Positions 2 to 49,617 of a DNA stretch of 63,244 nt are shown one piece after another. Within the stretch, counting starts at the first letter, position 1. Each line of letters begins with the position of its first letter. The position numbers and the translations under genes were made by a program. Source of the DNA: an uncultured Alphaproteobacteria bacterium (GTDB taxonomy: Bacteria; Pseudomonadota; Alphaproteobacteria; Methylaequorales; Methylaequoraceae); the NCBI GenBank assembly GCA_902526865.1, contig CABZMK010000005.1:1-63244 (forward strand). The letters run 5' to 3'. The notes below the pieces were generated by a model. The model ran no database searches and was not told where the DNA came from. It was given only the letters and a program-made list of their open reading frames with translations.

Positions 2-1237
2 GAATGCTTTGAAATAAGTGAGAAGTCAAATAAATCAAAATGTATCAATCTGTTAAAAGAAGTTGGTATTGAAAATCCAGAACAAAGACTTTCTCATTAT
101 CCACATCAGTTATCTGGAGGACAAAAACAAAGAGTTATGATTGCAATGGCAATAGCTAATAACCCTGACCTATTAATTGCTGATGAACCAACAACTGCGC
201 TTGACGTTACCATACAAAAACAAATTTTGGATTTATTGGATAAATTAAGAAAGAAATATAACATGTCACTTTTGCTAATCACTCATGACTTAGGAATTGT
301 TAAAGATATCTCTGACAGGGTTTGCGTTATGAGACAAGGAGAAATTGTTGAACAAAACAACACTAATAAATTATTTAATCAACCTAATCATAGCTATACA
401 AAAAAACTAATTAACTCAAAACCAAGAGAGAAAAAATTTCAAAAAAAGAAAAGTGGGGTTATTTTATCTGTAAAAAATCTTAATGTTTTCTACAAAAATA
501 AAAATAGTTTTCTTTTCAAAAATAAAGATGATTATTTTCAAGCTGTAAAAAATTTAAGTTTTGAAATCATTAAAGGAGAAACTTTAGGAATTGTGGGTGA
601 AAGTGGATCAGGAAAAAGTTCTATTGCCCAAGCTTTGATAAAATTAGTATCTTCAGAAGGAAGTGTTTTCTTTAAAAATAAAAATATTTCAGATTTAAGT
701 GAAAAAAAATTTAGACCTTTTCGAAAAGATATTCAGATAATTTTTCAGGATCCATTTGCTTCTTTAAGTCCCAGATTAACAATTCAAGATATAGTTAGCG
801 AGGGTTTGGAAGTTCATTATAAAGAAAAATCAAAAAAAGAAATCATAGATTTAACAAAACAAATGATTATTGATGTTGGACTTGATTCTTCCATGCTTTC
901 ACGATACCCACATGAGTTTTCTGGAGGACAAAGGCAAAGAATTGCGATTGCGAGGGCTCTTATTCTCAATCCAGAATTAATAATTCTTGACGAACCTACT
1001 AGTGCTCTAGATATGACTGTTCAATCGCAAATTGTGGATTTACTTTTGAATCTTCAAGAAAAGAAAAAGTTAACCTACATATTCATTAGTCACGACTTAA
1101 AAATTATTAAAGCATTGTCTGATAAAATCATGGTAATGAAATCTGGAAATATTGTAGAATTTGAGGAGAAAAAGAAAATTTTTTCTAGACCTAAAGATCA
1201 ATATACTAGGCGTCTACTAAATTCTGCATATTTTTAA
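2..1237 (+). CDS. Peptide/oligopeptide ABC transporter ATP-binding protein with two ABC domains (YejF-like), 5'-truncated by the window
   Basis: The frame is open back to base 2 ([18 protein letters not shown]). LLIADEPT Walker B, then a second domain with [20 protein letters not shown] and ILDEPT. Confidence 0.9.
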
Positions 1238-2580
1238 AACTTTTTGAAAAAATCTAAAAGTGCTCTTATACCCATAGCTTCACCACCTTCATATGAACTA
1301 TATTTATTGGCTCTTGTCCAAGCCATAAGATCAATATGAATCCAAGGAGTGTTCTTAACAAATTTTTGTAAAAATAAAGCTGCTGTGATCGCTCCTCCAA
1401 ACACACTATTTCCAATGTTCTTAAAATCTGCATGTTCCGAATTTAATTGATTAAGATAATTATCCCATAAAGGAAGTTGCCAAAGAGGATCTCCTGTTTT
1501 CTCAGAAGAATCAATTAATTTCATAGCTATATCGTCATCATTACAAAAAAAACTCGGTACCTCTAATCCCATAGCAACTCTCGATGCACCAGTCAATGTT
1601 GCCATATCAACTATCAAATCAGGCTTACTTTCAGATGCATAAGTAATGGCATCAGCAAGTATTAGTCTTCCTTCCGCATCCGTATCACCAATTTCGACAA
1701 AACTTCCTTCTCTACTTTTTACAATATCAGACGGTCTCATCGATTTTTTTGATATTGAATTTTCAACTAAGCATAACAACAAATGTAAATCTATTTTAAT
1801 TTCAAAATCACTTAACAGCTTGGCAAGACCAATACAATTAGCTGCACCTCCCATATCCTTTTTCATCAAAGACATACCAGTACCTGTTTTGATATTTAAA
1901 CCACCCGTATCAAAGGAGACTCCTTTTCCAATAAGAAAAATTTTTTTCTTATATTTTGTTTTTGATTTGAATTCGCAAAAAATTGGTTGTCTATTGGCGC
2001 TTGCTCCAATACCAACAGCTGAAATCAGTGGAAAATTATTTTCTAAACTCTTACCAAATTTCAAATTAACCACATCAAATTTTTTTAGATACTTTTTAGC
2101 TGAATTATAAATTTCCCTAGGACCTAAGATATTTGCTGGTGTATTTATTAAATCTCGTACATAAGAATATGATTCACTAATTGATTTAATTTCTGACGAT
2201 GATTCAAAATAAATCTTTGCATTATTTTTTTTAGTTTTCTTTTTAGACTTAAATTTATCGAAAGAATATTCAGCTAAGTGCCATCCGATAAAAAAATTTT
2301 TTATATCTGTTTTCTTACTACCAAAATACTCAATAAAAAAGTTTCCAGATTTTACAGATTTTCTAATCGCCAATCCAACTAACAACAATCTATGATTTTT
2401 TTGAAGTGTGTTAAGATTTGATATTTTTGTCAAATTGATTAATACCCTCTCTTCAGTCTTTGAAACCGAATAAGAATAAAATTCTTCAAAACATGTGTCC
2501 TTAAATTTTTTGGGAACCTGATCATTAGAAAAAAAAATAGAAATTGGGGTTTTTGCAAATTGTTTTCTTTTACTTGTCAT
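1234..2580 (-). CDS. M17 family leucyl aminopeptidase
   Basis: GKGVSFDTGG, MKKDMGGAA, DTDAEGRLILAD and DMATLTGA metal-binding motifs. Confidence 0.95.
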   Translation of the reverse strand: MTSKRKQFAKTPISIFFSNDQVPKKFKDTCFEEFYSYSVSKTEERVLINLTKISNLNTLQKNHRLLLVGLAIRKSVKSGNFFIEYFGSKKTDIKNFFIGWHLAEYSFDKFKSKKKTKKNNAKIYFESSSEIKSISESYSYVRDLINTPANILGPREIYNSAKKYLKKFDVVNLKFGKSLENNFPLISAVGIGASANRQPIFCEFKSKTKYKKKIFLIGKGVSFDTGGLNIKTGTGMSLMKKDMGGAANCIGLAKLLSDFEIKIDLHLLLCLVENSISKKSMRPSDIVKSREGSFVEIGDTDAEGRLILADAITYASESKPDLIVDMATLTGASRVAMGLEVPSFFCNDDDIAMKLIDSSEKTGDPLWQLPLWDNYLNQLNSEHADFKNIGNSVFGGAITAALFLQKFVKNTPWIHIDLMAWTRANKYSSYEGGEAMGIRALLDFFKKF

Positions 2581-2633
2581 TATTTTCTTTGGAATATATA
2601 TTTGTTTTTTTTAAGCAATGAAAAAGGGGATAC

Positions 2634-4049
2634 ATGAACATTTCACTTAAACTTAACATTTTTTTATTAACATTTCTTTCATTTAATTTTCTTCCTGAGC
2701 TTAGTTTGGCAGCAAGTGCATCTGAAGGACCAACCTCACTAAACATGATTTTTAGTCCGATTGGTATTTTTAGTATACTAATTTTTATCATTGCTTATGG
2801 ATTTGTAATGGCGGAAGAATTTACTCACTTTCGAAAATCCAAACCAGTAATTATAGCTGCCACTTTCATTTGGGTTCTAATTGCATACGTGGCTTCCCAA
2901 GATCCGTCTATTTCTCCAAAATGGGCTGAAACGCAGTTTAGACACGTGGTTCTAGAATTTGCAGAACTATTCTTTTTCCTTTTCGTTGCAATGGCTTATG
3001 TAAATTCCTTAACTGAAAGAAGAATGTTTGATGCACTATGTTCGTGGTTATCAAATAATAATTTTAGCTATAAAAAGATCTTTTTAATTTCAGGGGTCAT
3101 TGCTTTTTTTCTATCTCCTATTGCTGATAATTTAACCACTGCACTAATTCTTGGAACAGTTGTAATGGTTGCTGGAAGAGGTAATAAAGCCTTTATAGTT
3201 CCTGGGCTTATAAACATTGTTGTTGCTGCAAATGCAGGTGGAGCTTTTTCACCCTTTGGTGATATTACAACCTTGATGGTATGGCAACGTGGATTTGTCT
3301 CATTCTTTGATTTCTTTAATATTTTCGTTCCATCAGTTGTTAATTATGTTGTTCCAGCTGCTATAATGTATTTTGCAATACCTAATGAAATTCCAAAGGG
3401 TGATGGAAAAAAAGTACAAATCCTTCCAGGAGGCAATGTTATAGCCTTCTTGGGGATTTTAACAATCACGCTAACTGTTACCGGTCATAATGTTCTTCAT
3501 ATGCCGCCAATCCTTGGCATGATGTTTGGATTAGGAATGTTAGGAACATACGGTTATTTTCTTAAAATTAAAAATCCTGATAAAAATAAATTTGATATTT
3601 TTGTTATAACAGGAAGAGCTGAGTGGGATACCCTTTTATTCTTTTATGGAATATTGGTTGCAGTTGGTGGTCTCGCGTCTCTTGGGTATTTACAATTAAT
3701 CTCTGGACCCATGTATGAAACGCTCGGTGCTACTAATGCAAATATTTTGGTAGGTATTCTTTCAGCTATAATCGATAATATCCCTATCGTTTATGCTGTA
3801 TTAACTGCTCATCCTGAAATGGATATGGGGCAATGGTTGTTAATTACTTTAACTGCAGGAACTGGTGGGTCTTTATTGTCGATTGGTTCTGCAGCAGGAG
3901 TTGCTTTAATGGGCCAAGCCAGAGGTGTGTACACTTTCTTTGCACATTTAAAATGGGCATGGGCTATCTTACTTGGATATGCTGCTTGTATCATTGTTCA
4001 TCTTTTGATCAATCAACATCTATTTGATTTGATACCGCTAGAAAGATAA
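2634..4049 (+). CDS. nhaD: Na+/H+ antiporter, NhaD family
   Basis: Multi-TM protein with EEFTHFRKSKP, SPIADNLTTAL, AANAGGAFSPFGDITTLMVW and GGSLLSIGSAAGVALMG. Confidence 0.9.
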   Translation: MNISLKLNIFLLTFLSFNFLPELSLAASASEGPTSLNMIFSPIGIFSILIFIIAYGFVMAEEFTHFRKSKPVIIAATFIWVLIAYVASQDPSISPKWAETQFRHVVLEFAELFFFLFVAMAYVNSLTERRMFDALCSWLSNNNFSYKKIFLISGVIAFFLSPIADNLTTALILGTVVMVAGRGNKAFIVPGLINIVVAANAGGAFSPFGDITTLMVWQRGFVSFFDFFNIFVPSVVNYVVPAAIMYFAIPNEIPKGDGKKVQILPGGNVIAFLGILTITLTVTGHNVLHMPPILGMMFGLGMLGTYGYFLKIKNPDKNKFDIFVITGRAEWDTLLFFYGILVAVGGLASLGYLQLISGPMYETLGATNANILVGILSAIIDNIPIVYAVLTAHPEMDMGQWLLITLTAGTGGSLLSIGSAAGVALMGQARGVYTFFAHLKWAWAILLGYAACIIVHLLINQHLFDLIPLER

Positions 4050-4210
4050 TTGTAATTAATAAAGGTAAGAAGATTTTTTAATTTTTGTTTCTAAAAAGTA
4101 AAAGAGTGACTGATGTCAAATTTGTAATTTGAGGTCGGAACCTTTTCAAAGTTAAATCTAATGTGTGTTGTGAATAAAATTGTAATGATTAGCTATCTAT
4201 ATAAACCAAT

Positions 4211-4774
4211 TTATTCTTTTTCAATTCCAATTTCATAAAGTTCGAAATTAGCTTCTTCGATTTTTCCAGTAACTGCATCAACATCAACTTTTATTTCGTA
4301 ACCAGTGTTAGTTTGAATATCAAATTCGTAGGTAAGTGTTCCGTCCATACCAATTTCTCTTTCTTCAGCAACAACTCTTCCGGGATGAATTTTTAATGCA
4401 TAATCTTTGGCTTGTTGCAGTGTAACCTTGGCTCCACTTTTGAAAATAGGATTATTCTCGTCAACTTCCCTTTCAACTTCTATGATGAATCCCTCTTCTG
4501 CATTACATTCGACGTTATAAGTTGAACCATCTTTAGAAGATTCAATATCAAACTCATAAATAGGGTCGTCTCCTTCGATTTTAAATTCTAATTTTCTGGC
4601 ATGACCTGGAACTGTGTCGTAGGCTTGATCAAGACATTGTTCGACTTTAACGATATCATATAACTTAATATCATCGAGATCAAAATTATCATTAGCTTTT
4701 ACAGCACTGTCAATTGCTAGAAACGGGATAAGTGCTAAAGTGCAAAGAAATTTTTTGATTATCATAAGTCTCAT
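4211..4774 (-). CDS. Secreted acidic protein with two PepSY domains, lanpepsy (LanP)-like
   Basis: Signal peptide from ATG 4774 (or 4765). Two repeats of YEFDI...V(E/D)xxAxxGxIxE, a Cys pair in repeat 1, and about 40 Asp/Glu in about 160 mature residues. The ORF-track start at 4816 overlaps the receptor gene and is unlikely. Confidence 0.8.
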   Translation of the reverse strand: MRLMIIKKFLCTLALIPFLAIDSAVKANDNFDLDDIKLYDIVKVEQCLDQAYDTVPGHARKLEFKIEGDDPIYEFDIESSKDGSTYNVECNAEEGFIIEVEREVDENNPIFKSGAKVTLQQAKDYALKIHPGRVVAEEREIGMDGTLTYEFDIQTNTGYEIKVDVDAVTGKIEEANFELYEIGIEKE

Positions 4775-4809
4775 ATAGTCAAAATTTAATCTATAACAAC
4801 ATATTAATT

Positions 4810-7320
4810 CTACCATGTAAATTTCATACCGCCAAAGACTGTGAGTGGTTGACCTGGCGTAACAAAAGTTCCACTGCCTCCTGTTCCGTCAACCTCATTT
4901 TCAGCTAAAATTCCACCACTCTCAAAATTTGTATCTAGAAGATTTCTTCCTTCAAAAAATACTGAAGTACTGAATCCGCCTGCATCAGCATTCGCTCTTG
5001 GAACTGTGTATTCCAAAGAAGCGTTTAGAAGAAAATAGCCAGGAACTTGTTTTCCTTCCGCGTTATTTTCGTCTCCTCTATAGAACTGTCTTGAATTATA
5101 TTCTGCATCTACAAATAATCCTAAACCATCAAAAGGAATAAAACCAATGCCGACCCTACCAATGTGGGGAGATACTCCAGGTATAGCGTCACCTGGTCCA
5201 ACTTGAATTTGATATGATTCTCTGGCTTCACAGGAATTTTTATCAGCTGTAGCTGCAGCATCACCACCAGCACCATATGCTTCGGGACCTGAACATGGAT
5301 GAGGGTTTTCTGAGTGTCCGGCACTTGCAATCTTTTGATGAGTTTCAAATGAAGCCCTAACATATGAATAATTACCATACCAAGTAATGTTTTTTCCTAG
5401 TTTACCATTTATGGCTAACTCAGTCCCCATTCTTTGAGTATTACCAACATTTCTAAAATAACCTGTCCCAACTCTGTTTCCACCAATAAAAATGATGTCG
5501 TTGTAGTTTCGTCCAGCAAAAGCTGTTGCATTCCAATTAACACTGTGATCTGAACCAAATAAATTAAGACCTTCTTTTAAGCCCCTTGCTCCAAACTCAA
5601 AGCTTCTATTTTTTACTTCATCTAAAGGAGGGTCAGCTTGAAATGAGTTTGGAAGTCTGCACGGTTGAGCGGGGTCAGCACAACCAAGCTCTGCAACTGA
5701 AGGGTTGCGACTCGACTCTTTGTATGTTACATATACTGTGGTATTGCCAAACGCGAACATGTCGCCTAACTTTCTGGTTATTCCAACTCCAGGATTAAAT
5801 TCATTGAAAAAATGGTGACCTTCAAGTGCCGAGGAGAATTGGTCTTCCATTTTAAGAGAAGCCCAATTCCATCTTCCAGACAAATTCAAAGAAGTAACAT
5901 CATCCAAATCAATTGTGTTACTTCCATATAAAGCTAAGTTATGTGTTGTTGCTTCGAGATTAGTTATAAAAATATTTTCACCCTCGGAATCTTGACTGAG
6001 AAGAACACCAGTACCTTGAACGCCTCTGTCAGACTGAATTATGCCAAGTTCTGTTGAAGAAGCAAAACTATTATGCGAGAATTCATAAGCAAGGCCTGTA
6101 ATGAGTGTGTTATTTTTATCATATAAATTATGATCAAGTGTTGACTGAAAGTTTAAACCCATTTGATTTTGCTTCGTGTTAGATCTATTAATTGCACCAA
6201 TACTTTCAACTTCGTTTTCATCACTTTCAAGCTCCAAGCCGAGGTTAACGTAATTAATTGCAGCTCCTGATACATCAAGATATTGTTCGGTGGATCCTCC
6301 AGTAATTTCCAACTCTGAGCAAAGAATGCCATCAGCTGCTCCTTTGGTAAAATTGTATCCTTTTCCACAATCACCTGCTTCAAACTCATCGCCATTATAA
6401 TTTCTTCTTTCCATATGACGGTAGAAGATATTGCCCTGAACTGACAACTTATCATTGACAAAATGATTCCCACCAAAATTAGCATAATAATTTTTATTAT
6501 GCGTGTTGTCAGGATAAGTATAGACAGCGTCTCTTCCCTCTAAATCCATTAATGTTAAAGGTACGGCACCGTTACCTCTTAAATCTGTATAAGCTTGGCC
6601 AAAATTTACAAAAAGTTCTGTGTCTTCATTTGGTCTGTACCTTACATCTCCATAAACAGTGTTTAAATATGATTCAGAATGTTCTCTATACCCATTGTCG
6701 TAATTGAAATTTGCTCCTAAATATACACCAAGGTTTCCAAATTCTTGTCCATATTCAAGAATCTCATTTGTTCTTCCATGACTACCTCCAGAGGTGGTTA
6801 CGCTTGCATCTTGAAAATTAAAACCGTTCTTCATTTCCATTGTGATCGCTCCTCCAAGTGCATTTTGACCAAAAATCGGATCTCCGCCTGTAAAAATTTG
6901 CATGCTGTGAGTTGCAAAATCAGGAACTAAGTCCCATTGAACAACTTCTCCAAAAGATTCGTTTATTCTCATACCATTCTGATAAACAGCTATAGATTGG
7001 GCTGTGCCTAAAAGAGGACCACCAACGTAACCTCTAAAATTAATGTCATTCTGCATAGGGGAACTGTTTAAATTAAACAATGAAATCCCTGTTGTTTCTC
7101 TGTTTAATGTTTCTGTAATTGATAAATTCTTTTTTTTGCCAAGTTGGGCTCTGTTAATTGTCTGAATTTTACCTGGAACCCTGTCGATGTCTAAGCCCGA
7201 ACCTTGAACTGGTGTTACCGATATTATGTTTACATCAGGCGCAACGTAAGTTCTGTCTTGGGCCATTGAAATAGTCGAGGTTGACAATAAAATTATAATT
7301 AATGAGCAACCTTTTTTCAT
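4810..7320 (-). CDS. TonB-dependent outer-membrane receptor (LutH/LanA-like by recalled motifs)
   Basis: Signal peptide, TonB-box-like PDVNIIS, plug motif NGMRINESFGEVVQWDLVP...FGQNALGGA, ELGCADPAQPCRLPN...DPPL, and C-terminal GMKFTW beta-signal. TBDR call is firm; subfamily call is moderate. Confidence 0.92.
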   Translation of the reverse strand: MKKGCSLIIILLSTSTISMAQDRTYVAPDVNIISVTPVQGSGLDIDRVPGKIQTINRAQLGKKKNLSITETLNRETTGISLFNLNSSPMQNDINFRGYVGGPLLGTAQSIAVYQNGMRINESFGEVVQWDLVPDFATHSMQIFTGGDPIFGQNALGGAITMEMKNGFNFQDASVTTSGGSHGRTNEILEYGQEFGNLGVYLGANFNYDNGYREHSESYLNTVYGDVRYRPNEDTELFVNFGQAYTDLRGNGAVPLTLMDLEGRDAVYTYPDNTHNKNYYANFGGNHFVNDKLSVQGNIFYRHMERRNYNGDEFEAGDCGKGYNFTKGAADGILCSELEITGGSTEQYLDVSGAAINYVNLGLELESDENEVESIGAINRSNTKQNQMGLNFQSTLDHNLYDKNNTLITGLAYEFSHNSFASSTELGIIQSDRGVQGTGVLLSQDSEGENIFITNLEATTHNLALYGSNTIDLDDVTSLNLSGRWNWASLKMEDQFSSALEGHHFFNEFNPGVGITRKLGDMFAFGNTTVYVTYKESSRNPSVAELGCADPAQPCRLPNSFQADPPLDEVKNRSFEFGARGLKEGLNLFGSDHSVNWNATAFAGRNYNDIIFIGGNRVGTGYFRNVGNTQRMGTELAINGKLGKNITWYGNYSYVRASFETHQKIASAGHSENPHPCSGPEAYGAGGDAAATADKNSCEARESYQIQVGPGDAIPGVSPHIGRVGIGFIPFDGLGLFVDAEYNSRQFYRGDENNAEGKQVPGYFLLNASLEYTVPRANADAGGFSTSVFFEGRNLLDTNFESGGILAENEVDGTGGSGTFVTPGQPLTVFGGMKFTW

Positions 7321-7338
7321 ACTTCCAACAAAACTTTA

Positions 7339-7356
7339 GATCTATGTTGATCTATG
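7339..7356. repeat. Tandem direct repeat GATCTATG x2 (10-bp period) just upstream of the receptor start
   Basis: GATCTATG at 7339-7346 and 7349-7356, read directly. Function is inferred. Confidence 0.5.
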
Positions 7357-7381
7357 CTATAAATATATTTGACCTTGTCAA
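7354..7381 (-). promoter_or_regulatory. Candidate sigma70 promoter for the receptor operon, overlapping the palindrome TTGAC-N3-GTCAA
   Basis: Minus strand TTGACA (7381-7376), 16-nt spacer, TAGCAT (7359-7354). Palindrome at 7369-7381. Confidence 0.35.
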
Positions 7382-7408
7382 TATTGTTTTAAAACTTATG
7401 TTAATAAC

Positions 7409-7858
7409 ATGTTCGCTATATTTGAAAAACTAAAAAAAGAAAATATTAAAACTCAAGAACTCTCATCCATTGACAAAGCTATTTTAATATCGACCCTTTT
7501 AGTTGAATGTGCTAGAAGCGATGATAATTTTACTGATACAGAAAAAGTGCAAATAAAAAAAATTTTAAAGAATAAGTTACATCTCGATGATTCTGAGGTT
7601 GAAAAATGTTTTGAAACAGCTAACGAAAGCTCTGAAAAAAGCATTGAAATTTATTCTTTAACCAAAGAAATCAGAGATAATTTTGATAAAGACGAAATAC
7701 TCTTCATTTTTGAGTTGCTCTGGAAAATAATTTTATCAGACGGTATCATCGATGATTTTGAGTCTTCAATGATGACAAAACTCACTGGATTATTTCATTT
7801 AACAGGAAAAGAAAACGCAGATGCAAAAAAAAATGCGCAAATTGCACTTAATCTTTAA
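7409..7858 (+). CDS. TerB family (tellurite-resistance-like) protein
   Basis: LLVECARSDDNFTDTE and IILSDGIIDDFE match the TerB-fold pattern. Confidence 0.8.
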   Translation: MFAIFEKLKKENIKTQELSSIDKAILISTLLVECARSDDNFTDTEKVQIKKILKNKLHLDDSEVEKCFETANESSEKSIEIYSLTKEIRDNFDKDEILFIFELLWKIILSDGIIDDFESSMMTKLTGLFHLTGKENADAKKNAQIALNL

Positions 7859-8141
7859 AATAATCAGATTTACGCATTTTTATTTTTTTTCTAGAGACTT
7901 CAAACCTTTTTCTGTTCTTGATAGATTTAGAATGGACCCTCTCTCTCCATAATCTAAAGCTTTTTGTTTTTAAAGTCCTTCGCATTATTTTAATTACATC
8001 AGATTCAGATTTTCCAGTTTTTTCAAATATTTCCTCAAATGTAATTCTATCAGCCCATGCGGCCCAAATTATCCAATCTGGGTCTGAAATATTAGGTTCT
8101 TTATTCTTAACTTTTGTTTCTGGTCTATTTGATTTTTTCAC
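7848..8141 (-). CDS. TIGR03643/DUF2805 family protein
   Basis: IWAAWADRITFEEI...ESDVIKIMRRTLKTKSFRLWRERV. Confidence 0.85.
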   Translation of the reverse strand: MKKSNRPETKVKNKEPNISDPDWIIWAAWADRITFEEIFEKTGKSESDVIKIMRRTLKTKSFRLWRERVHSKSIKNRKRFEVSRKKIKMRKSDYFKD

Positions 8142-8144
8142 AAC

Positions 8145-8687
8145 TTAGAATAGTTCGCCTTCTAAAATATCCAATTGTGCTTCAAAATTCTTTCCAAAAG
8201 CGACAAATCCAATACTTTTTATATCTGACGAGTTAAAGAGTGATGGTTGATAAAAATTAGATTTTTTAAAATCCTTAAATAAAATTTCATGATCTTTCCA
8301 AGCTTCTGTAACGACAAATTTTCCGGAATAATATTGCCATGGCAACAAGAGAAAAGATGTCCTAATGTGAATAAAATATTCACTTGGCAAACCTCTTGCC
8401 TTTATTCTAATTCCATTTAAGTTTTCTTCATCAATTTCAAAGTTACACCTTATTTGAATAAAACCCCCATTATTTTCAGTACTAACAACACCACTAAGTC
8501 TTAAAAAATTATTTTTTTTATCTTTTAATATTTCAAATTTACCCTCAGATATTCCTCCCATTACTTTATCTGAAACAAATTCCCATTTTTTTGAAGAATT
8601 TTCTGATTCAATGTTTTGAAGTAAATCCATTGCATTTATTTTGTTAACTAATATAAAAAAAAATATTAAAAAGAAATGAAATTTCAT
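8145..8687 (-). CDS. CIA30/NDUFAF1-like protein
   Basis: WEFVSDKVMGGISEG, LSGVVSTENNGGFIQIR, and an N-terminal hydrophobic leader. Confidence 0.88.
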   Translation of the reverse strand: MKFHFFLIFFFILVNKINAMDLLQNIESENSSKKWEFVSDKVMGGISEGKFEILKDKKNNFLRLSGVVSTENNGGFIQIRCNFEIDEENLNGIRIKARGLPSEYFIHIRTSFLLLPWQYYSGKFVVTEAWKDHEILFKDFKKSNFYQPSLFNSSDIKSIGFVAFGKNFEAQLDILEGELF

Positions 8688-45154: not shown

Positions 45155-45854
45155 AATAATTTTCCTTAAATTTTTTAAGATCCTCTGCCGTTCCTATGTG
45201 AAACCATTGATTTTCGTCTATATAGCCAAATAACTTATTTTTTTCTAGAGATTTTAGTATCTGTTCTTTTAATGAAAAACAATTTTTCTTAACATCCTTT
45301 ATAATATTCTGCTTGATGATTTGCAGCCCTGTATAGGCATACAAAGGATTTGTTTTTATTTCTAATTTTGATGACGAGAATTTGTCACTTTGAAGATCAA
45401 AATCTCCATCACCATTGTAACCAAAAAAATCTTCCTTTCTTTTTAAACATAACAACATATCCATTTTACGTGGGTTCCATAGGCTAATGATTTTATCAAT
45501 TGACTTATATTTCTTGTCATACCAAAAAATATCCCCGTTTAAAAGCACAACGGGAATGTTTTCTGTAAAGCATTTTTCGTTAATTGCATTTAATAAGCCA
45601 CCTCCTGTCTCAAGTCTTTCAGATTCAACAATAACTTTTACCGATTCGAACATTTTTGTTTCGTTAATAATTTTTTCTGAATGATGATAAGCATTTACGA
45701 CAATATTTTTGAATCTAGATTCAATCAATTTTTCAATATTATTTTTCAGGAGACTCTTTTTATTAATTTTTATAAGCGGCTTGGGTATGTTCTCTGTTAG
45801 TGGTAACATCCTTTTTCCAAGTCCAGCTGAAAATATCATTGCCTGCGAAATCAT
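45147..45854 (-). CDS. murU: Nucleotidyltransferase, MurNAc-alpha-1-P uridylyltransferase type
   Basis: AMIFSAGLGKRMLPLT...PKPL, LETGGG, LNGD and WFHIGT; adjacent to amgK. Confidence 0.8.
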   Translation of the reverse strand: MISQAMIFSAGLGKRMLPLTENIPKPLIKINKKSLLKNNIEKLIESRFKNIVVNAYHHSEKIINETKMFESVKVIVESERLETGGGLLNAINEKCFTENIPVVLLNGDIFWYDKKYKSIDKIISLWNPRKMDMLLCLKRKEDFFGYNGDGDFDLQSDKFSSSKLEIKTNPLYAYTGLQIIKQNIIKDVKKNCFSLKEQILKSLEKNKLFGYIDENQWFHIGTAEDLKKFKENYCE

Positions 45855-46795
45855 TACAAACCCAATGGTTTTTCTAAAATCTTAAATAAAGGGCTAAATT
45901 TATTTTTTTTTAAATTAGATTCAAGCAAACCTAAAACTCTTGGGATATGTTTGATATAATTTTTTTTATTATCTCGCATTTCAAGTCTCCTAAAAATTCC
46001 CAAAACTTTAAGGTGTCTTTGAATTGCTATAACAGTGTACGAAAATAAAAATAGATCTTTATCAATGGATTTACAATTTTCTAAATAATAATTAATCAAG
46101 AAATTCTCTGTTCTCTTTTCTACGTCTATTCTAGCATCTTGTGCAAGTGACACAACATCGTATACACATGGACCTACTAAAGCGTCCTGATAATCAATCC
46201 AGCCACATTTGAAATGCTTGTCTTTTTCCTTAAGATAAAATAAGTTATCGATATGATAATCTCTATGAATAAAGACGCTCGGTAATAAATAGACTTTATC
46301 TAAAAAGCCTGAAAAGATTGAGTTAAATTCATTTTTTAATAATTCGACTCTTCTTTTTGACAAATCTAAATACCAATCGAAAAATAAATTTGATTCATCA
46401 AAAAAGATTTTTTTACTGTAGTGAACAAGTTTTTTATCGATTTTTTTTTTATGAATGTACAGTAATGCATCCAAAGCAACTTTGTACAATTTTATTTTGT
46501 TAGATTTTTTTAATACTTCACTAAATTTGTTATTTCTAAAGTTTTCTATAATTAAAATATCATATTCTTTTAGATCTGTAATGATTTGAGGAATACTTAC
46601 ATGTTTTTTTAAAAGATAAGAAATTTTTATAAATCTTTCTAAACTTCTTGAATCGTTATCAAACATCAATACATTTGTATTACTTTCTTGTTTAATCAAA
46701 AAATATTTTCTGTCTGAAGCATCTCCAGCTAAAAATCGTAAATTATCGAATTTTATTTTTTTATAATCTAATTTTTTGATTATTTCGTCTATCAT
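45854..46795 (-). CDS. amgK: Aminoglycoside-phosphotransferase-fold anomeric MurNAc/GlcNAc kinase
   Basis: LAGDASDRKYF, IHRDYHIDNL, IDYQDALVGP and QRHLKVLGIF. Confidence 0.82.
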   Translation of the reverse strand: MIDEIIKKLDYKKIKFDNLRFLAGDASDRKYFLIKQESNTNVLMFDNDSRSLERFIKISYLLKKHVSIPQIITDLKEYDILIIENFRNNKFSEVLKKSNKIKLYKVALDALLYIHKKKIDKKLVHYSKKIFFDESNLFFDWYLDLSKRRVELLKNEFNSIFSGFLDKVYLLPSVFIHRDYHIDNLFYLKEKDKHFKCGWIDYQDALVGPCVYDVVSLAQDARIDVEKRTENFLINYYLENCKSIDKDLFLFSYTVIAIQRHLKVLGIFRRLEMRDNKKNYIKHIPRVLGLLESNLKKNKFSPLFKILEKPLGL

Positions 46796-47253
46796 TTCTC
46801 GGGATTATATTCACGAATTTTATTTTTATTTATCTTCCTTACAGTCGCATATCTTAATAAAGATTCATCTTCATCAAGATGTATTTCAATCCTTTTATGA
46901 GGTAAATACTCCGTTATAATTTCTGGCCATTCAACTATTACACAGTCTAAGAGGGCTAATTCAAAATCCAATTCAAAAATTTCTGTTTTATTTTTGAGCC
47001 TGAAAAGATCATAGTGCCAAACTTTTATGTTTTTCAAATCATAAATATTAACAAGTGAAAAGGTGGGGCTTAAGACTCTTATTTTTTTTTTGGATAGATT
47101 GTTAATTATTAAACTAGCCAAAGTAGTTTTTCCGACCCCCAGTTTTCCTCTCAAAGATATAAAACTTTTCGGTTTTATTCTTTTGGCAATTTTTTGCGCT
47201 AATTTCCCAGTTTCTCGAAGGTTATCCAAATTAATTTTAAATTCATCTTTCAT
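46792..47253 (-). CDS. tsaE: t6A biosynthesis ATPase
   Basis: GKLGVGKT, SPTFSLV, HYDLFRL and IVEWPE. Confidence 0.95.
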   Translation of the reverse strand: MKDEFKINLDNLRETGKLAQKIAKRIKPKSFISLRGKLGVGKTTLASLIINNLSKKKIRVLSPTFSLVNIYDLKNIKVWHYDLFRLKNKTEIFELDFELALLDCVIVEWPEIITEYLPHKRIEIHLDEDESLLRYATVRKINKNKIREYNPEK

Positions 47254-47287
47254 TTTTATTAATTATTCTAATATAAATATGTAATTA

Positions 47288-48325
47288 ATGTTTAAAAAAC
47301 AAAAAAAGATAATTATGAATAAAACTTTAACAGATGTATTAGTTATAGGAGCTGGTCCTATAGGACTGTTCTCAGTTTTTGAGCTTGGACAACTGGGGAT
47401 TAAATCATGTGTTGTTGATTCACTTGATATTATTGGTGGACAATGTTCATCTTTGTATCCGGAAAAACCAATATATGATATTCCTGCATACCCTGAAATA
47501 TCTGGTAAAAAACTTATTGATAACCTTTTCAGTCAGATCAAACCATTTTCACCAAAATTTATATTGGGCGAAAGAGTTGAAAAAATTACTAAACAAAACG
47601 ATGAATTTCTAGTTTTCACCTCAAATAACAAATCAATTGAATGTAAATGTATTTTAATAGCAGCCGGCAACGGAGCTTTTGGACCAAATAAACCACCTCT
47701 GAAAGACATTGAAGAATACGAAAATAAATCAATTTTTTATCATATAACTAACAAATCTATTTTTAAAAATAAAAAAATAGCAATTGCTGGTGGCGGTGAC
47801 TCAGCCGTAGATTGGGCTATTGAACTCTCTTCAGTTGCAGAGAAAGTATTTTTTATTCATAGAAGAAGAAAATTAAGAGCTGCACCTCATAGTGTTGAAA
47901 AACTTTTTTCACTTGAAAAGGAAGAAAAAATTAAAACAATAATACCTTTTCAAGTTCACTCTCTTCAAGGCTCTAAAGGAGAAATCAACACATTGACTGT
48001 TAGCAACCTTGATGAAGAAAAAATAGATCTTAAGGTAGATTATTTTCTTCCTTTTTTTGGCCTTTCCTCTGAATTAGGTCCTATTAAAGATTGGGAATTG
48101 GAAATTGAAAAAAATCTATTGAGCGTTGACCAATCAAGTCTTCAAACCTCCGCCAAAGGCATATTTGCAATTGGAGACATATGTGATTACCCCGGCAAGC
48201 TTAAACTAATTCTAACTGGCTTTTCAGAAGCTGCAATGGCTGCTCATAGTTGTTACAAAAAGATTTTTCCTGACAAAGTTCTTCATTTTGAATACTCAAC
48301 TACATCGGGTATTAAAAAACTATAG
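47288..48325 (+). CDS. Ferredoxin-NADP+ reductase, TrxR-like type (alternative start 47315)
   Basis: IGAGPIGLF, GGQC..LYPEKPIYDIP, GGGDSAVDWA and YPGKLKLILTGFSEAA. Confidence 0.88.
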   Translation: MFKKQKKIIMNKTLTDVLVIGAGPIGLFSVFELGQLGIKSCVVDSLDIIGGQCSSLYPEKPIYDIPAYPEISGKKLIDNLFSQIKPFSPKFILGERVEKITKQNDEFLVFTSNNKSIECKCILIAAGNGAFGPNKPPLKDIEEYENKSIFYHITNKSIFKNKKIAIAGGGDSAVDWAIELSSVAEKVFFIHRRRKLRAAPHSVEKLFSLEKEEKIKTIIPFQVHSLQGSKGEINTLTVSNLDEEKIDLKVDYFLPFFGLSSELGPIKDWELEIEKNLLSVDQSSLQTSAKGIFAIGDICDYPGKLKLILTGFSEAAMAAHSCYKKIFPDKVLHFEYSTTSGIKKL

Positions 48326-48330
48326 TTTTG

Positions 48331-49617
48331 TTAATATCTATATTCTTCACTTTTATAAGGCCCACCTACAGGAACATTTATATAATCTCCTTGATTTTTC
48401 GATAATTTGGTTAACTTAGCACCAATTTTATCAAGGTGTATCCTAGCTACTTTTTCATCTAGTTTTTTCGGAAGAACATAAACTTTATTTTTATATTTAC
48501 TATAATTTTTCCATAGCTCTATTTGAGCCAAAACCTGATTTGAAAAAGAAGCTGACATAACAAAGCTTGGATGACCGGTTGCGCATCCTAAATTTACTAA
48601 ACGACCCTCTGCAAGAACTATTATTTTCTTTCCATCAGGAAATTCAATTTCGTCAACTTGTGGTTTTATGTTATCCCACTTATAGTTTTTAAGAGCTTCA
48701 ATCTGAATTTCGGAATCGAAGTGTCCTATGTTACATACAATACTCCTGTCTTTCATTTTTCTCATATGATCTATAGTTATTACGTCAACATTTCCGGTGG
48801 CTGTCACAAAAATATCTGCTTTATCCGCAACATCATCCATAGTGTTGACTTCAAACCCATCCATAGCAGCTTGAAGAGCACAAATAGGGTCTATTTCAGT
48901 TACAACAACCCGACATCCTGCATTTCTTAGGCTTTCTGCTGAACCTTTGCCAACATCACCATATCCTGCAACAAGTGCGACTTTTCCAGCCATCATAACA
49001 TCGGTTGCCCTTCTTATTCCATCAACTAAGCTTTCTCTACAACCGTATTTATTATCAAACTTAGATTTTGTGACTGAATCGTTAACATTTATAGCAGGTA
49101 CTAAAAGTTGATTACTTTTTTCCATTTCTAAAAGCCTTAAAACACCTGTTGTTGTTTCTTCTGACAAACCTCTAACTCCATCGAGAAGATGGGGATATTT
49201 TTCATGCATAATTTTTGTAAGATCTCCTCCATCATCTAGTATAAGATTGGGTTTCCAGTCATTAGGCCCTGTAATTGTTTTTTCTATACACCACCAAAAT
49301 TCTTCTTCAGTTTCACCTTTCCAAGCAAAAACAGGAATTCTACTTTTGGCAACAGCCGCAGCTGCTTGATCTTGAGTAGAATAAATATTGCAAGAACTCC
49401 ACCTAACAGAAGCTCCTAAATCTATGAGCGTCTCAATTAAAACTGCAGTTTGTATCGTCATATGTAAGCATCCAACAATTCTTGCACCAGCAAGAGGTTT
49501 TTCATCTTTAAACTCTGATCTTAACTGCATAAGCCCAGGCATTTCCGTTTCAGCAATTTTAATCTCTTTTCTTCCCCAATTAGCTAAATCTATGTCTTTA
49601 ATTTTAAAATCATCCAT
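48331..49617 (-). CDS. ahcY: Adenosylhomocysteinase
   Basis: [37 protein letters not shown] and [14 protein letters not shown]. Confidence 0.98.

Follow-up and report, generated by a model that had tools for sequence, protein, structure and literature searches.

We analysed a stretch of 63,244 nt, here called the window, that covers positions 1 to 63,244 of contig CABZMK010000005.1 (assembly GCA_902526865.1) from an uncultured alphaproteobacterium of the TMED127 lineage ('Methylaequorales'). We concentrated on two neighbouring genes, one encoding a TonB-dependent receptor and one encoding a small secreted protein with two PepSY domains. We consider it probable that the pair constitutes, in this methylotroph, a LutH-type lanthanide importer and a co-produced periplasmic protein that accepts or buffers the metal. 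The two protein families have been described before. The receptor assignment was also known already, since its orthologue is listed as lutH in the supplement (Table S5) of the study describing the lineage (Glass et al., 2025; PMC12542740). What is new is the presence of lanpepsy (LanP) in TMED127 and in other Alphaproteobacteria, an explanation for a published negative result on this point, and the recurrent linkage of receptor and LanP, in one genome with a TonB system.

The nearest loci with LanP and receptor were found in single-cell genomes deposited as 'uncultured Alphaproteobacteria AG-...' and in the metagenome-assembled genomes (MAGs) MED657, MED652 and MED715, which Glass et al. (2025; PMC12542740) assign to TMED127, a group of marine methylotrophs also called 'Clade X'. 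The lineage has no isolate, and its lanthanide-dependent methanol dehydrogenase is the most highly transcribed one in oligotrophic surface seawater (PMC12542740). How TMED127 scavenges lanthanides at picomolar concentrations is a question posed explicitly by its describers.

Homology of the PepSY protein to lanpepsy

Two PepSY stretches were detected in the small protein using Pfam (PF03413, E 2e-16). Its N-terminus, MRLMIIKKFLCTLALIPFLAIDSAVKA/ND, shows a basic n-region, a hydrophobic core and an AxA-like site when read by eye. We therefore regard approximately residues 1–27 (...SAVKA/ND) as a putative signal peptide and predict Sec export of the protein. The putative mature chain (residues 24–187) contains 24.4% Asp+Glu and has a calculated isoelectric point (pI) of 4.27, which agrees with the statement in the initial annotation that about a quarter of the mature residues are acidic.

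A phmmer search against all PDB chains yielded 9VY3 at E 4.1e-39, with residues 42–185 aligned to residues 10–153 of the 153-residue chain. The sole other match listed, a cadherin chain at E 0.88, was not significant. The entries 9VY3–9VYA represent Methylobacillus flagellatus LanP in the apo form and in complex with La, Nd, Sm, Gd, Tb, Ho and Yb (bioRxiv 10.1101/2025.10.21.683075). Over the whole mature chain, the identity between the two proteins is 52%. The text of the preprint names D54, E68, E106, E108, E118 and E132 as metal-bridging ligands and K29, K33 and K130 as stabilising lysines (bioRxiv 10.1101/2025.10.21.683075). Our check took in these named residues, the full list of LanP ligands comprising 19. 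Four of the bridging ligands (E68, E106, E108 and E118) are identical in the window protein, E132 is replaced by Asp and D54 by Asn, which leaves five of the six named bridging carboxylates in place when the change of E132 to Asp is counted as conservation. The Asn at the D54 position (N87 in the window protein) can still serve as an oxygen donor. None of the three named lysines is lost, and 24 of 34 acidic columns are kept. The resemblance to LanP that the initial annotation had read from motifs is thus borne out, and the PepSY protein is a true LanP homologue.

The published filter for LanP homologues with 'potentially the same function' uses at least 85% coverage and E <= 1e-20 (Hemmann et al., 2023; PMC9988556), and the window protein passes it. 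A search of metagenomic sequences returned 422 homologues. The AlphaFold2 model (predicted local distance difference test, pLDDT, 82) shows a unit of one helix and four strands that occurs twice, and so has the same eight-strand layout as LanP. When this model was compared with the PDB using Foldseek, the top hit was 4EXR with a template modelling (TM) score of 0.31–0.38; the 9VY entries were apparently outside the library copy. The Foldseek result adds nothing beyond the sequence match; 4EXR is also the best HHpred match published for LanP itself (PMC9988556).

The window protein thus shares with M. flagellatus LanP (Mfla_0908; ∼24% Asp+Glu, pI ∼4.3) its small size, two PepSY domains and acidic eight-strand barrel, along with the named lysines and most named ligands, and, judging by the putative signal peptide, probably also Sec export. 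It differs in falling into a separate marine clade, in acidic residues that are new relative to M. flagellatus (E93, E94, E137 and E173) and in the conserved N-terminal residues D29, D32, D34 and D35. Another PepSY protein that binds multiple ions through acidic domains is UipA from Microbacterium (PDB 7ATH), which binds uranyl and Fe3+. UipA is a membrane-anchored, domain-swapped dimer with a concave sheet and not a barrel (PMC9988556), and in the PDB sequence search it did not match the window protein significantly.

Right after the signal peptide, the marine LanP clade carries an invariant acidic stretch, D-x-x-D-L-D-D-I-K-L-Y-D-I-V-K-V-E-Q-C (4640–4693 of the window, residues 28–45). It lies N-terminal to the part that aligns with the crystallised chain and is modelled with low confidence (pLDDT 51–56). 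The stretch might bind additional metal or serve for docking.

Assignment of the receptor

The receptor matched the Pfam domains Plug (1.2e-11) and TonB_dep_Rec_b-barrel (6.9e-31). In the genome of M. flagellatus A12, which was reached via its LanP locus, the best match was an 800-aa receptor with a gene for a sigma-54 response regulator directly 3′ in the same orientation. This is the arrangement of Mfla_1253/Mfla_1254, a lanthanum-induced receptor and a sigma-54 regulator, and deletion of Mfla_1253 abolishes the lanthanum response (PMC9988556). A reverse search with the M. flagellatus receptor matched only the window receptor in the present genome (E 1e-112), and the two are reciprocal best matches. 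With BLASTP the window receptor aligned over its full length to the Mfla_1253-type protein (31% identity, E 6e-120), and a Methylophaga member scored E 3e-123. The paralogues from Methylobacillus that align over the full length scored 4e-69 to 6e-76 and other paralogues were weaker.

In a maximum-likelihood tree the window receptor was placed in a clade with 100% support together with proteins from Methylophilaceae, Methylophaga and Alteromonas. Escherichia coli PqqU formed the sister branch, and the siderophore receptors FepA, CirA, FhuA and FecA as well as the B12 receptor BtuB fell outside the clade. The tree proposed as a check in the initial annotation therefore showed no grouping with siderophore or B12 receptors. 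The motifs from which that annotation had placed the receptor in the LutH/LanA-type subfamily turned out to be invariant in an alignment with homologues from M. flagellatus, Methylotenera, Methylophaga and Alteromonas. They comprise R118/N120/E121/F123/G124...P133, F150/G151/N153/G156/G157/A158 and E544/L545/C547/C554/P557/D563-P564-P565-L566. The last of them is seen as CA[DN]P...C.LPN...DPPL in both the Mfla_1253-type members and the window receptor. We could not detect DPPL in the E. coli receptors, in the other three receptors of this genome or in the Methylophilaceae paralogues. Among the sequences compared, DPPL is accordingly a mark of the Mfla_1253-type subgroup only.

The published orthologue is AG-892-F10.CDS.109, an 836-aa protein that is 93% identical to the window receptor and is labelled lutH, a homologue of Methylorubrum extorquens META1p1785, in Table S5 of PMC12542740. 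LutH of M. extorquens AM1 (META1p1785) and Mfla_1253 resemble the window receptor in having a Plug and a barrel and in co-occurring with XoxF. On the other hand, it is no more than 30–31% identical to the members from Methylophilaceae and Methylophaga (BLASTP), and the window receptor has no adjacent sigma-54 regulator, unlike Mfla_1253, and is not next to the lut genes for an ATP-binding cassette (ABC) transporter, unlike AM1 lutH. A class-wide search for M. extorquens LutH gave the L114 locus as the best large-genome candidate. We rejected it as the AM1 lutH locus; it has a gene for a lutA-like binding protein 5 kb from the receptor but no lut ABC genes.

When the PDB was searched with the single receptor sequence no match was returned, and with a family profile the nearest entries were YncD/PqqU (PDB 6V81 and 9C4O; E 4.8e-34 and 1.3e-33). 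PqqU lacks the family motifs and ∼100–130 residues of loops that are found in the receptor family. What the two would have in common is, in a broad sense, service to PQQ-dependent periplasmic dehydrogenases. The argument that the window receptor is the only receptor of its genome was ruled out, since a Pfam Plug search found four such proteins (on contigs C5, C6, C17 and C30) where BLAST had suggested one.

Organisation of the locus

The features of the locus are listed in Table 1. Both ORFs and Pfam agree with the initial annotation of a TonB-dependent receptor followed 35 nt downstream, on the same strand, by a secreted double-PepSY protein.

Table 1. Positions of the receptor–LanP pair and of flanking features in the window (ORF, open reading frame).
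Feature	Position	Strand	Basis
LutH / Mfla_1253-type TonB-dependent receptor gene, 836 aa	4810–7320	minus	ORF; Pfam; signal peptide + Plug + 22-strand barrel
Intergenic spacer, receptor stop to lanP start, 35 nt	4775–4809	minus	sequence + terminator scan
LanP homologue gene, 187 aa, two PepSY domains	4211–4774	minus	ORF; Pfam; PDB 9VY3 match
Sigma-70-like promoter candidate TTGACA-16-TAGCAT, 5′ of the receptor gene	7354–7381	minus	promoter scan, 10/12 consensus matches
TerB-domain gene, divergent from the receptor	7409–7858	plus	
97-aa ORF	7848–8141	minus	
CIA30-domain gene	8145–8687	minus	

The PepSY ORF extends over 4211–4816 when read from its most upstream ATG. We used the in-frame ATG at 4774 (MRLMIIKKF...), which gives the 187-aa protein and the 35-nt spacer. 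A terminator scan of this spacer revealed no terminator-like site. The same strand, the short spacing and the lack of a terminator suggest that the receptor gene and lanP are on one transcript. Converging on the pair is a gene for an NhaD antiporter (NCBIfam NF038006, 2.5e-143).

A gap of 88 nt separates the start of the receptor gene from the divergent TerB gene at 7409. The initial annotation saw no cobalamin or TPP riboswitch in this gap, and Rfam indeed reported no riboswitch anywhere in the window, its matches being three tRNAs only. The candidate promoter ATTGACAAGG...TATAGCAT, identified as a consensus match only, is kept in the same-genus loci L004, L006 and L007, and a TTGACA box recurs in other genera. 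Apart from this, we found no conserved operator, sigma-54 promoter or riboswitch upstream of the receptor. An inverted repeat between the promoter candidate and the start codon, TAGATC-N6-GATCTA, was rejected as an operator because it is not conserved in the closest relatives.

Distribution in TMED127 and a published negative result

We searched 42 TMED127 genomes representing 14 genera. LanP was present in 29 genomes (12 of the 14 genera) and the receptor in 34, including all nine genomes that are at least 90% complete. Both proteins were encoded in 27 genomes. In 18 of these, from four genera, lanP directly follows the receptor gene on the same strand, and in two further genomes the genes lie 3–6 kb apart. 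Thus, most TMED127 genera have an intact lanpepsy homologue, contrary to its published absence. According to published surveys LanP is confined to Beta- and Gammaproteobacteria, with lanmodulin occurring in Alphaproteobacteria; LanP in the alphaproteobacterial TMED127 is an exception to this range.

The main text of Glass et al. (2025) states that no lanmodulin or lanpepsy homologues were found in TMED127 (PMC12542740). One of our genomes, G030, is the single amplified genome (SAG) AG-892-F10, and its gene coordinates are exactly those in Table S5 of that study. There, the gene 3′ of lutH appears as two separate hypothetical ORFs, 74 and 45 aa long (PMC12542740). In the corresponding locus (L129, ∼1658–2218) we found that one codon of lanP, the one for the otherwise invariant Glu78 (GAA in the window), is TAA, so that the protein reads YEFDI*SS with the asterisk as the stop, and that the frame is otherwise intact and conserved. 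The TAA may be a real recent pseudogene mutation, or it may be an amplification or sequencing error. As it splits lanP in the reference SAG, the published absence of LanP from TMED127 is best explained as a product of this stop codon. Transcription in the Sargasso Sea has been reported for the same genome with ∼320 transcripts per million (TPM) for lutH and ∼168 and ∼123 TPM for the two lanP fragments (Table S5, PMC12542740). We found no further paper on the lanthanome of TMED127 in the literature searched.

In the same-genus locus L133 (G032:C1:148300-153500), the receptor is 93% identical to that of the window, contains an in-frame TGA and has lost ∼45 of its last codons, and LanP is missing. 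About 275 nt are left before nhaD, which looks like one deletion of the receptor 3′ end together with lanP.

Linkage outside TMED127

Linkage of LanP to a LutH-type receptor was also found in two unrelated settings. The first is G232, a high-GC alphaproteobacterium that is not related to TMED127, where nine genes stand in a row on the minus strand (2392–13297 of L128, G232:C13:35000-52000). They encode, in order, a HAMP histidine kinase, a sigma-54 response regulator, a LutH-type receptor, an autotransporter-domain protein, LanP, ExbB, ExbD, a second ExbD and TonB. This LanP is 52% identical to M. flagellatus LanP, the protein with the autotransporter beta-domain has 433 aa and TonB has 614 aa. 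The second is a cluster in Alteromonadaceae (L058, 134–6453, from an Alteromonadaceae UBA2620 MAG; L056 from Alteromonas alba strain 190) that consists of a LutH-type receptor, a pentapeptide-repeat protein and an alcohol dehydrogenase dependent on pyrroloquinoline quinone (PQQ), with LanP divergent and a DDE transposase alongside. The receptor of this cluster is the sole match to the window receptor in its genome at E <= 1e-10.

Other taxa have a different arrangement. The two genes, adjacent here, are unlinked in M. flagellatus, and they are unlinked in Methylophaga as well. At least 17 Methylophaga loci have genes for a MoxY-like kinase and a LuxR regulator 5′ of LanP, which suggests that LanP belongs there to a regulon of methanol oxidation and the lanthanide switch. 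Three other loci have xoxF beside LanP. In the Methylophaga-type loci (L030–L059, ∼1300–6000 in each) the same-strand kinase has a LapD/MoxY periplasmic domain, and a malic enzyme gene is often near.

To describe co-occurrence we used a phylogenetic profile of 397 Alphaproteobacteria outside TMED127. The receptor family was present in 25 genomes, XoxF in 27 and both in 14, which gives an odds ratio of 35 and a p of 3e-12 in a Fisher test that takes genomes as independent and ignores kinship. Expressed differently, XoxF was found in 14 of the 25 receptor-positive genomes and in 13 of the 372 receptor-negative ones. Full-length LanP was detected in three of the 397 genomes, all three of which have the receptor (p 2e-4, likewise with kinship ignored).

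In a short, midpoint-rooted LanP tree, the TMED127 proteins form one clade with 100% support that is nested in a marine gammaproteobacterial clade of Methylophaga, Alteromonadaceae, Luminiphilus and MAGs. The Methylophilaceae clade with the characterised protein is separate from it. Because of this nesting, we tentatively suggest a single horizontal acquisition of LanP by TMED127, which would have been followed by vertical descent and losses.

Lanthanide-related genes elsewhere in the genome

The initial annotation noted that neither a lut ABC transporter nor xoxF is in the window. Both are on another contig of the genome, C8. This contig encodes a 633-aa XoxF with WDYDG, the Asp-x-Asp signature of lanthanide enzymes, together with XoxG, XoxJ and PqqB, PqqC, PqqD and PqqE. 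It also carries a lut-like cluster of a lutA-like binding protein, a YVTN beta-propeller protein, an ABC ATPase and an ABC-2 permease. The genome search that the annotation had recommended therefore recovered a lanthanide-type xoxF and pqqBCDE, in accordance with the xoxFGJ, pqqBCDE and lut genes published for TMED127 (PMC12542740). The suggestion of a 'minimal' receptor-plus-chaperone system did not hold, because C8 holds all of these genes.

With the lut-like genes on C8 and the receptor on C5, the receptor is not beside lut ABC genes in this genome, and in AG-892-F10 the distance from lutA to lutH is ∼40 kb (Table S5, PMC12542740). A location next to the lut ABC genes is a trait of the AM1 locus and not of the protein family. 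The assembly, which is 80% complete, further contains one TonB_C protein and one ExbD-family protein. The ExbD-family match, on C20, may be TolR.

Proposed function and alternative explanations

We propose the following mechanism. The receptor would bring Ln3+, free or ligand-bound, across the outer membrane. LanP, made together with the receptor and exported by Sec, would bind several Ln3+ ions in its acidic eight-strand barrel and act as a periplasmic acceptor or buffer that keeps free metal low at the picomolar supply of seawater. It would then pass the metal on to periplasmic XoxF, to a LutA-type binding protein of the lut ABC importer, or to both. What the data show is the homology of both proteins, their conserved adjacency, the recurrent linkage in unrelated lineages, the co-occurrence of the receptor family with XoxF and, from published data, the transcription of both genes in situ. 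The metal specificity, the co-transcription and any direct hand-off of the metal are inferred.

Several observations weigh against this proposal. The name LutH derives from the Table S5 label of the orthologue and from the match to the Mfla_1253 type. In the receptor tree, moreover, the TMED127 proteins branch outside the group formed by Mfla_1253 and its uncharacterised paralogues, so that the orthology is to this whole group. In the window LanP, Asn replaces the bridging D54 and Ala the site-5 ligand E104. The dehydrogenase of the Alteromonadaceae cluster has AWDFSG, with Ser at the diagnostic position, which by the usual rule marks a calcium-type enzyme; the occurrence of LanP and LutH-type receptors is therefore not limited to loci of Asp-x-Asp enzymes. 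The deletion of lanP in M. flagellatus, the sole organism in which this was tested, gave no growth or xoxF-switch phenotype (PMC9988556), and LanP is thus dispensable there. Within TMED127 its presence is patchy: 13 of the 42 genomes lack it, three of them among the nine with a completeness of at least 90%. Four same-genus genomes show a clean absence of lanP between the receptor and nhaD, and in three genomes in-frame stops interrupt the gene. In seven of the 27 genomes with both genes these are on different contigs. Several TMED127 genomes, some with LanP on a separate contig, have LanP near a different, unrelated receptor. Judged by the presence, adjacency and loss counts, LanP in TMED127 is common, usually linked to the receptor, yet dispensable.

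We considered whether the pair handles another metal, Fe3+ or a similar hard cation, with the receptor importing a siderophore-type chelate and the PepSY protein serving as a general cation binder like UipA. Some observations fit such a role. The PepSY domains of UipA accept both uranyl and Fe3+, LanP also occurs beside other receptor types in TMED127 and Luminiphilus, the open ocean is poor in iron, and none of the receptors of this genome has an assigned iron role. The sole NCBIfam match of the receptor is TIGR01783 (TonB-siderophore); however, it scored 46 bits against a cut-off of 223.5. The position of the receptor outside FepA, CirA, FhuA and FecA and the odds ratio for co-occurrence with XoxF argue in the same direction, as do the identity of the small protein to a LanP with solved lanthanide complexes and most ligands kept, and the LanP homologues that adjoin xoxF or MoxY-type regulators in other taxa. 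We therefore regard a different metal as unlikely.

We also think it quite unlikely that the adjacency is mechanistically meaningless, LanP being a dispensable store of lanthanides that arrived by horizontal transfer and came to lie beside the receptor by chance in some TMED127 lineages. This would be compatible with the nested position of TMED127 LanP among marine Gammaproteobacteria, with its variable location among genera, with its frequent loss or disruption, and with the unlinked genes of M. flagellatus and Methylophaga. It does not account for linkage in three unrelated gene orders (TMED127, Alteromonadaceae and, with a TonB system, G232), for a same-strand spacing of 35 nt without terminator that suggests one transcript, or for the receptor in all three other Alphaproteobacteria with LanP.

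Import of PQQ by the receptor, as by PqqU/YncD, with LanP as a functionally unrelated neighbour, would suit the nearest solved structures, the sister position of PqqU and the Alteromonadaceae receptor clustered with a calcium-type PQQ alcohol dehydrogenase, but it is very unlikely given that direct comparison with E. coli PqqU gives a marginal match that is not full-length (19% identity over 230 residues, E 3.5e-4), that the single-sequence PDB search gave no match, that the host makes its own PQQ with pqqBCDE, that Mfla_1253 is lanthanum-induced and its deletion abolishes the lanthanum response, and that the partner of the receptor in the operons of G232 and TMED127 is LanP and not a set of PQQ genes.

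The lanthanide importer with its periplasmic acceptor thus remains the explanation we favour. A more far-reaching version of it, to which we give a clearly smaller chance, is that LutH-type receptors have in LanP a dedicated partner in the periplasm. LanP might dock at or near the periplasmic face of the receptor, strip Ln3+ off the transporter or its ligand and stack several ions in its barrel, and the module might have spread horizontally. Such spread would have taken place among marine methylotrophs, including Alphaproteobacteria, where only lanmodulin was thought to serve. If this were true, the relay would let the most active methanol oxidiser of the ocean harvest picomolar lanthanides without a lanthanophore, and LanP, so far without a known phenotype, would have a physiological role. 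The coupling of receptor and LanP, in one genome together with an ExbBD-TonB set, in any case offers a testable role for a protein whose deletion in the model organism gave no phenotype. Candidates for work on rare-earth separation also include the marine LanP variants, whose ligand set is altered.

Neighbouring genes and other receptors

Every TMED127 locus examined retains the block of the CIA30 gene, the 97-aa ORF and the divergent TerB gene 5′ of the receptor, including those loci from which LanP is absent because it lies in another place. Transcription of the TerB orthologue amounts to ∼467 TPM (Table S5 of PMC12542740).

The second, unrelated receptor found near LanP in several other TMED127 genera (655–675 aa, with a DUF1826 gene) is the orthologue of the C30 receptor of this genome. 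LanP is divergently adjacent to it in L025 (region 2833–6522) and L024 and lies 1.5–4 kb off in the others. Genes for a 121-aa Cys-rich membrane ORF and a DUF1826 protein are located 3′ of this receptor. In the present genome the receptor of the C30 region 4712–7639 is downstream of genes that by eye resemble cobalamin-synthesis genes.

The receptor of the C17 region 508–4124 groups with E. coli FecA in the tree and is followed by a 108-aa ORF and then by a 269-aa ORF resembling a secreted binding protein. In the C6 region 45815–48525 the receptor is followed by the only TonB_C-domain gene detected in the genome.

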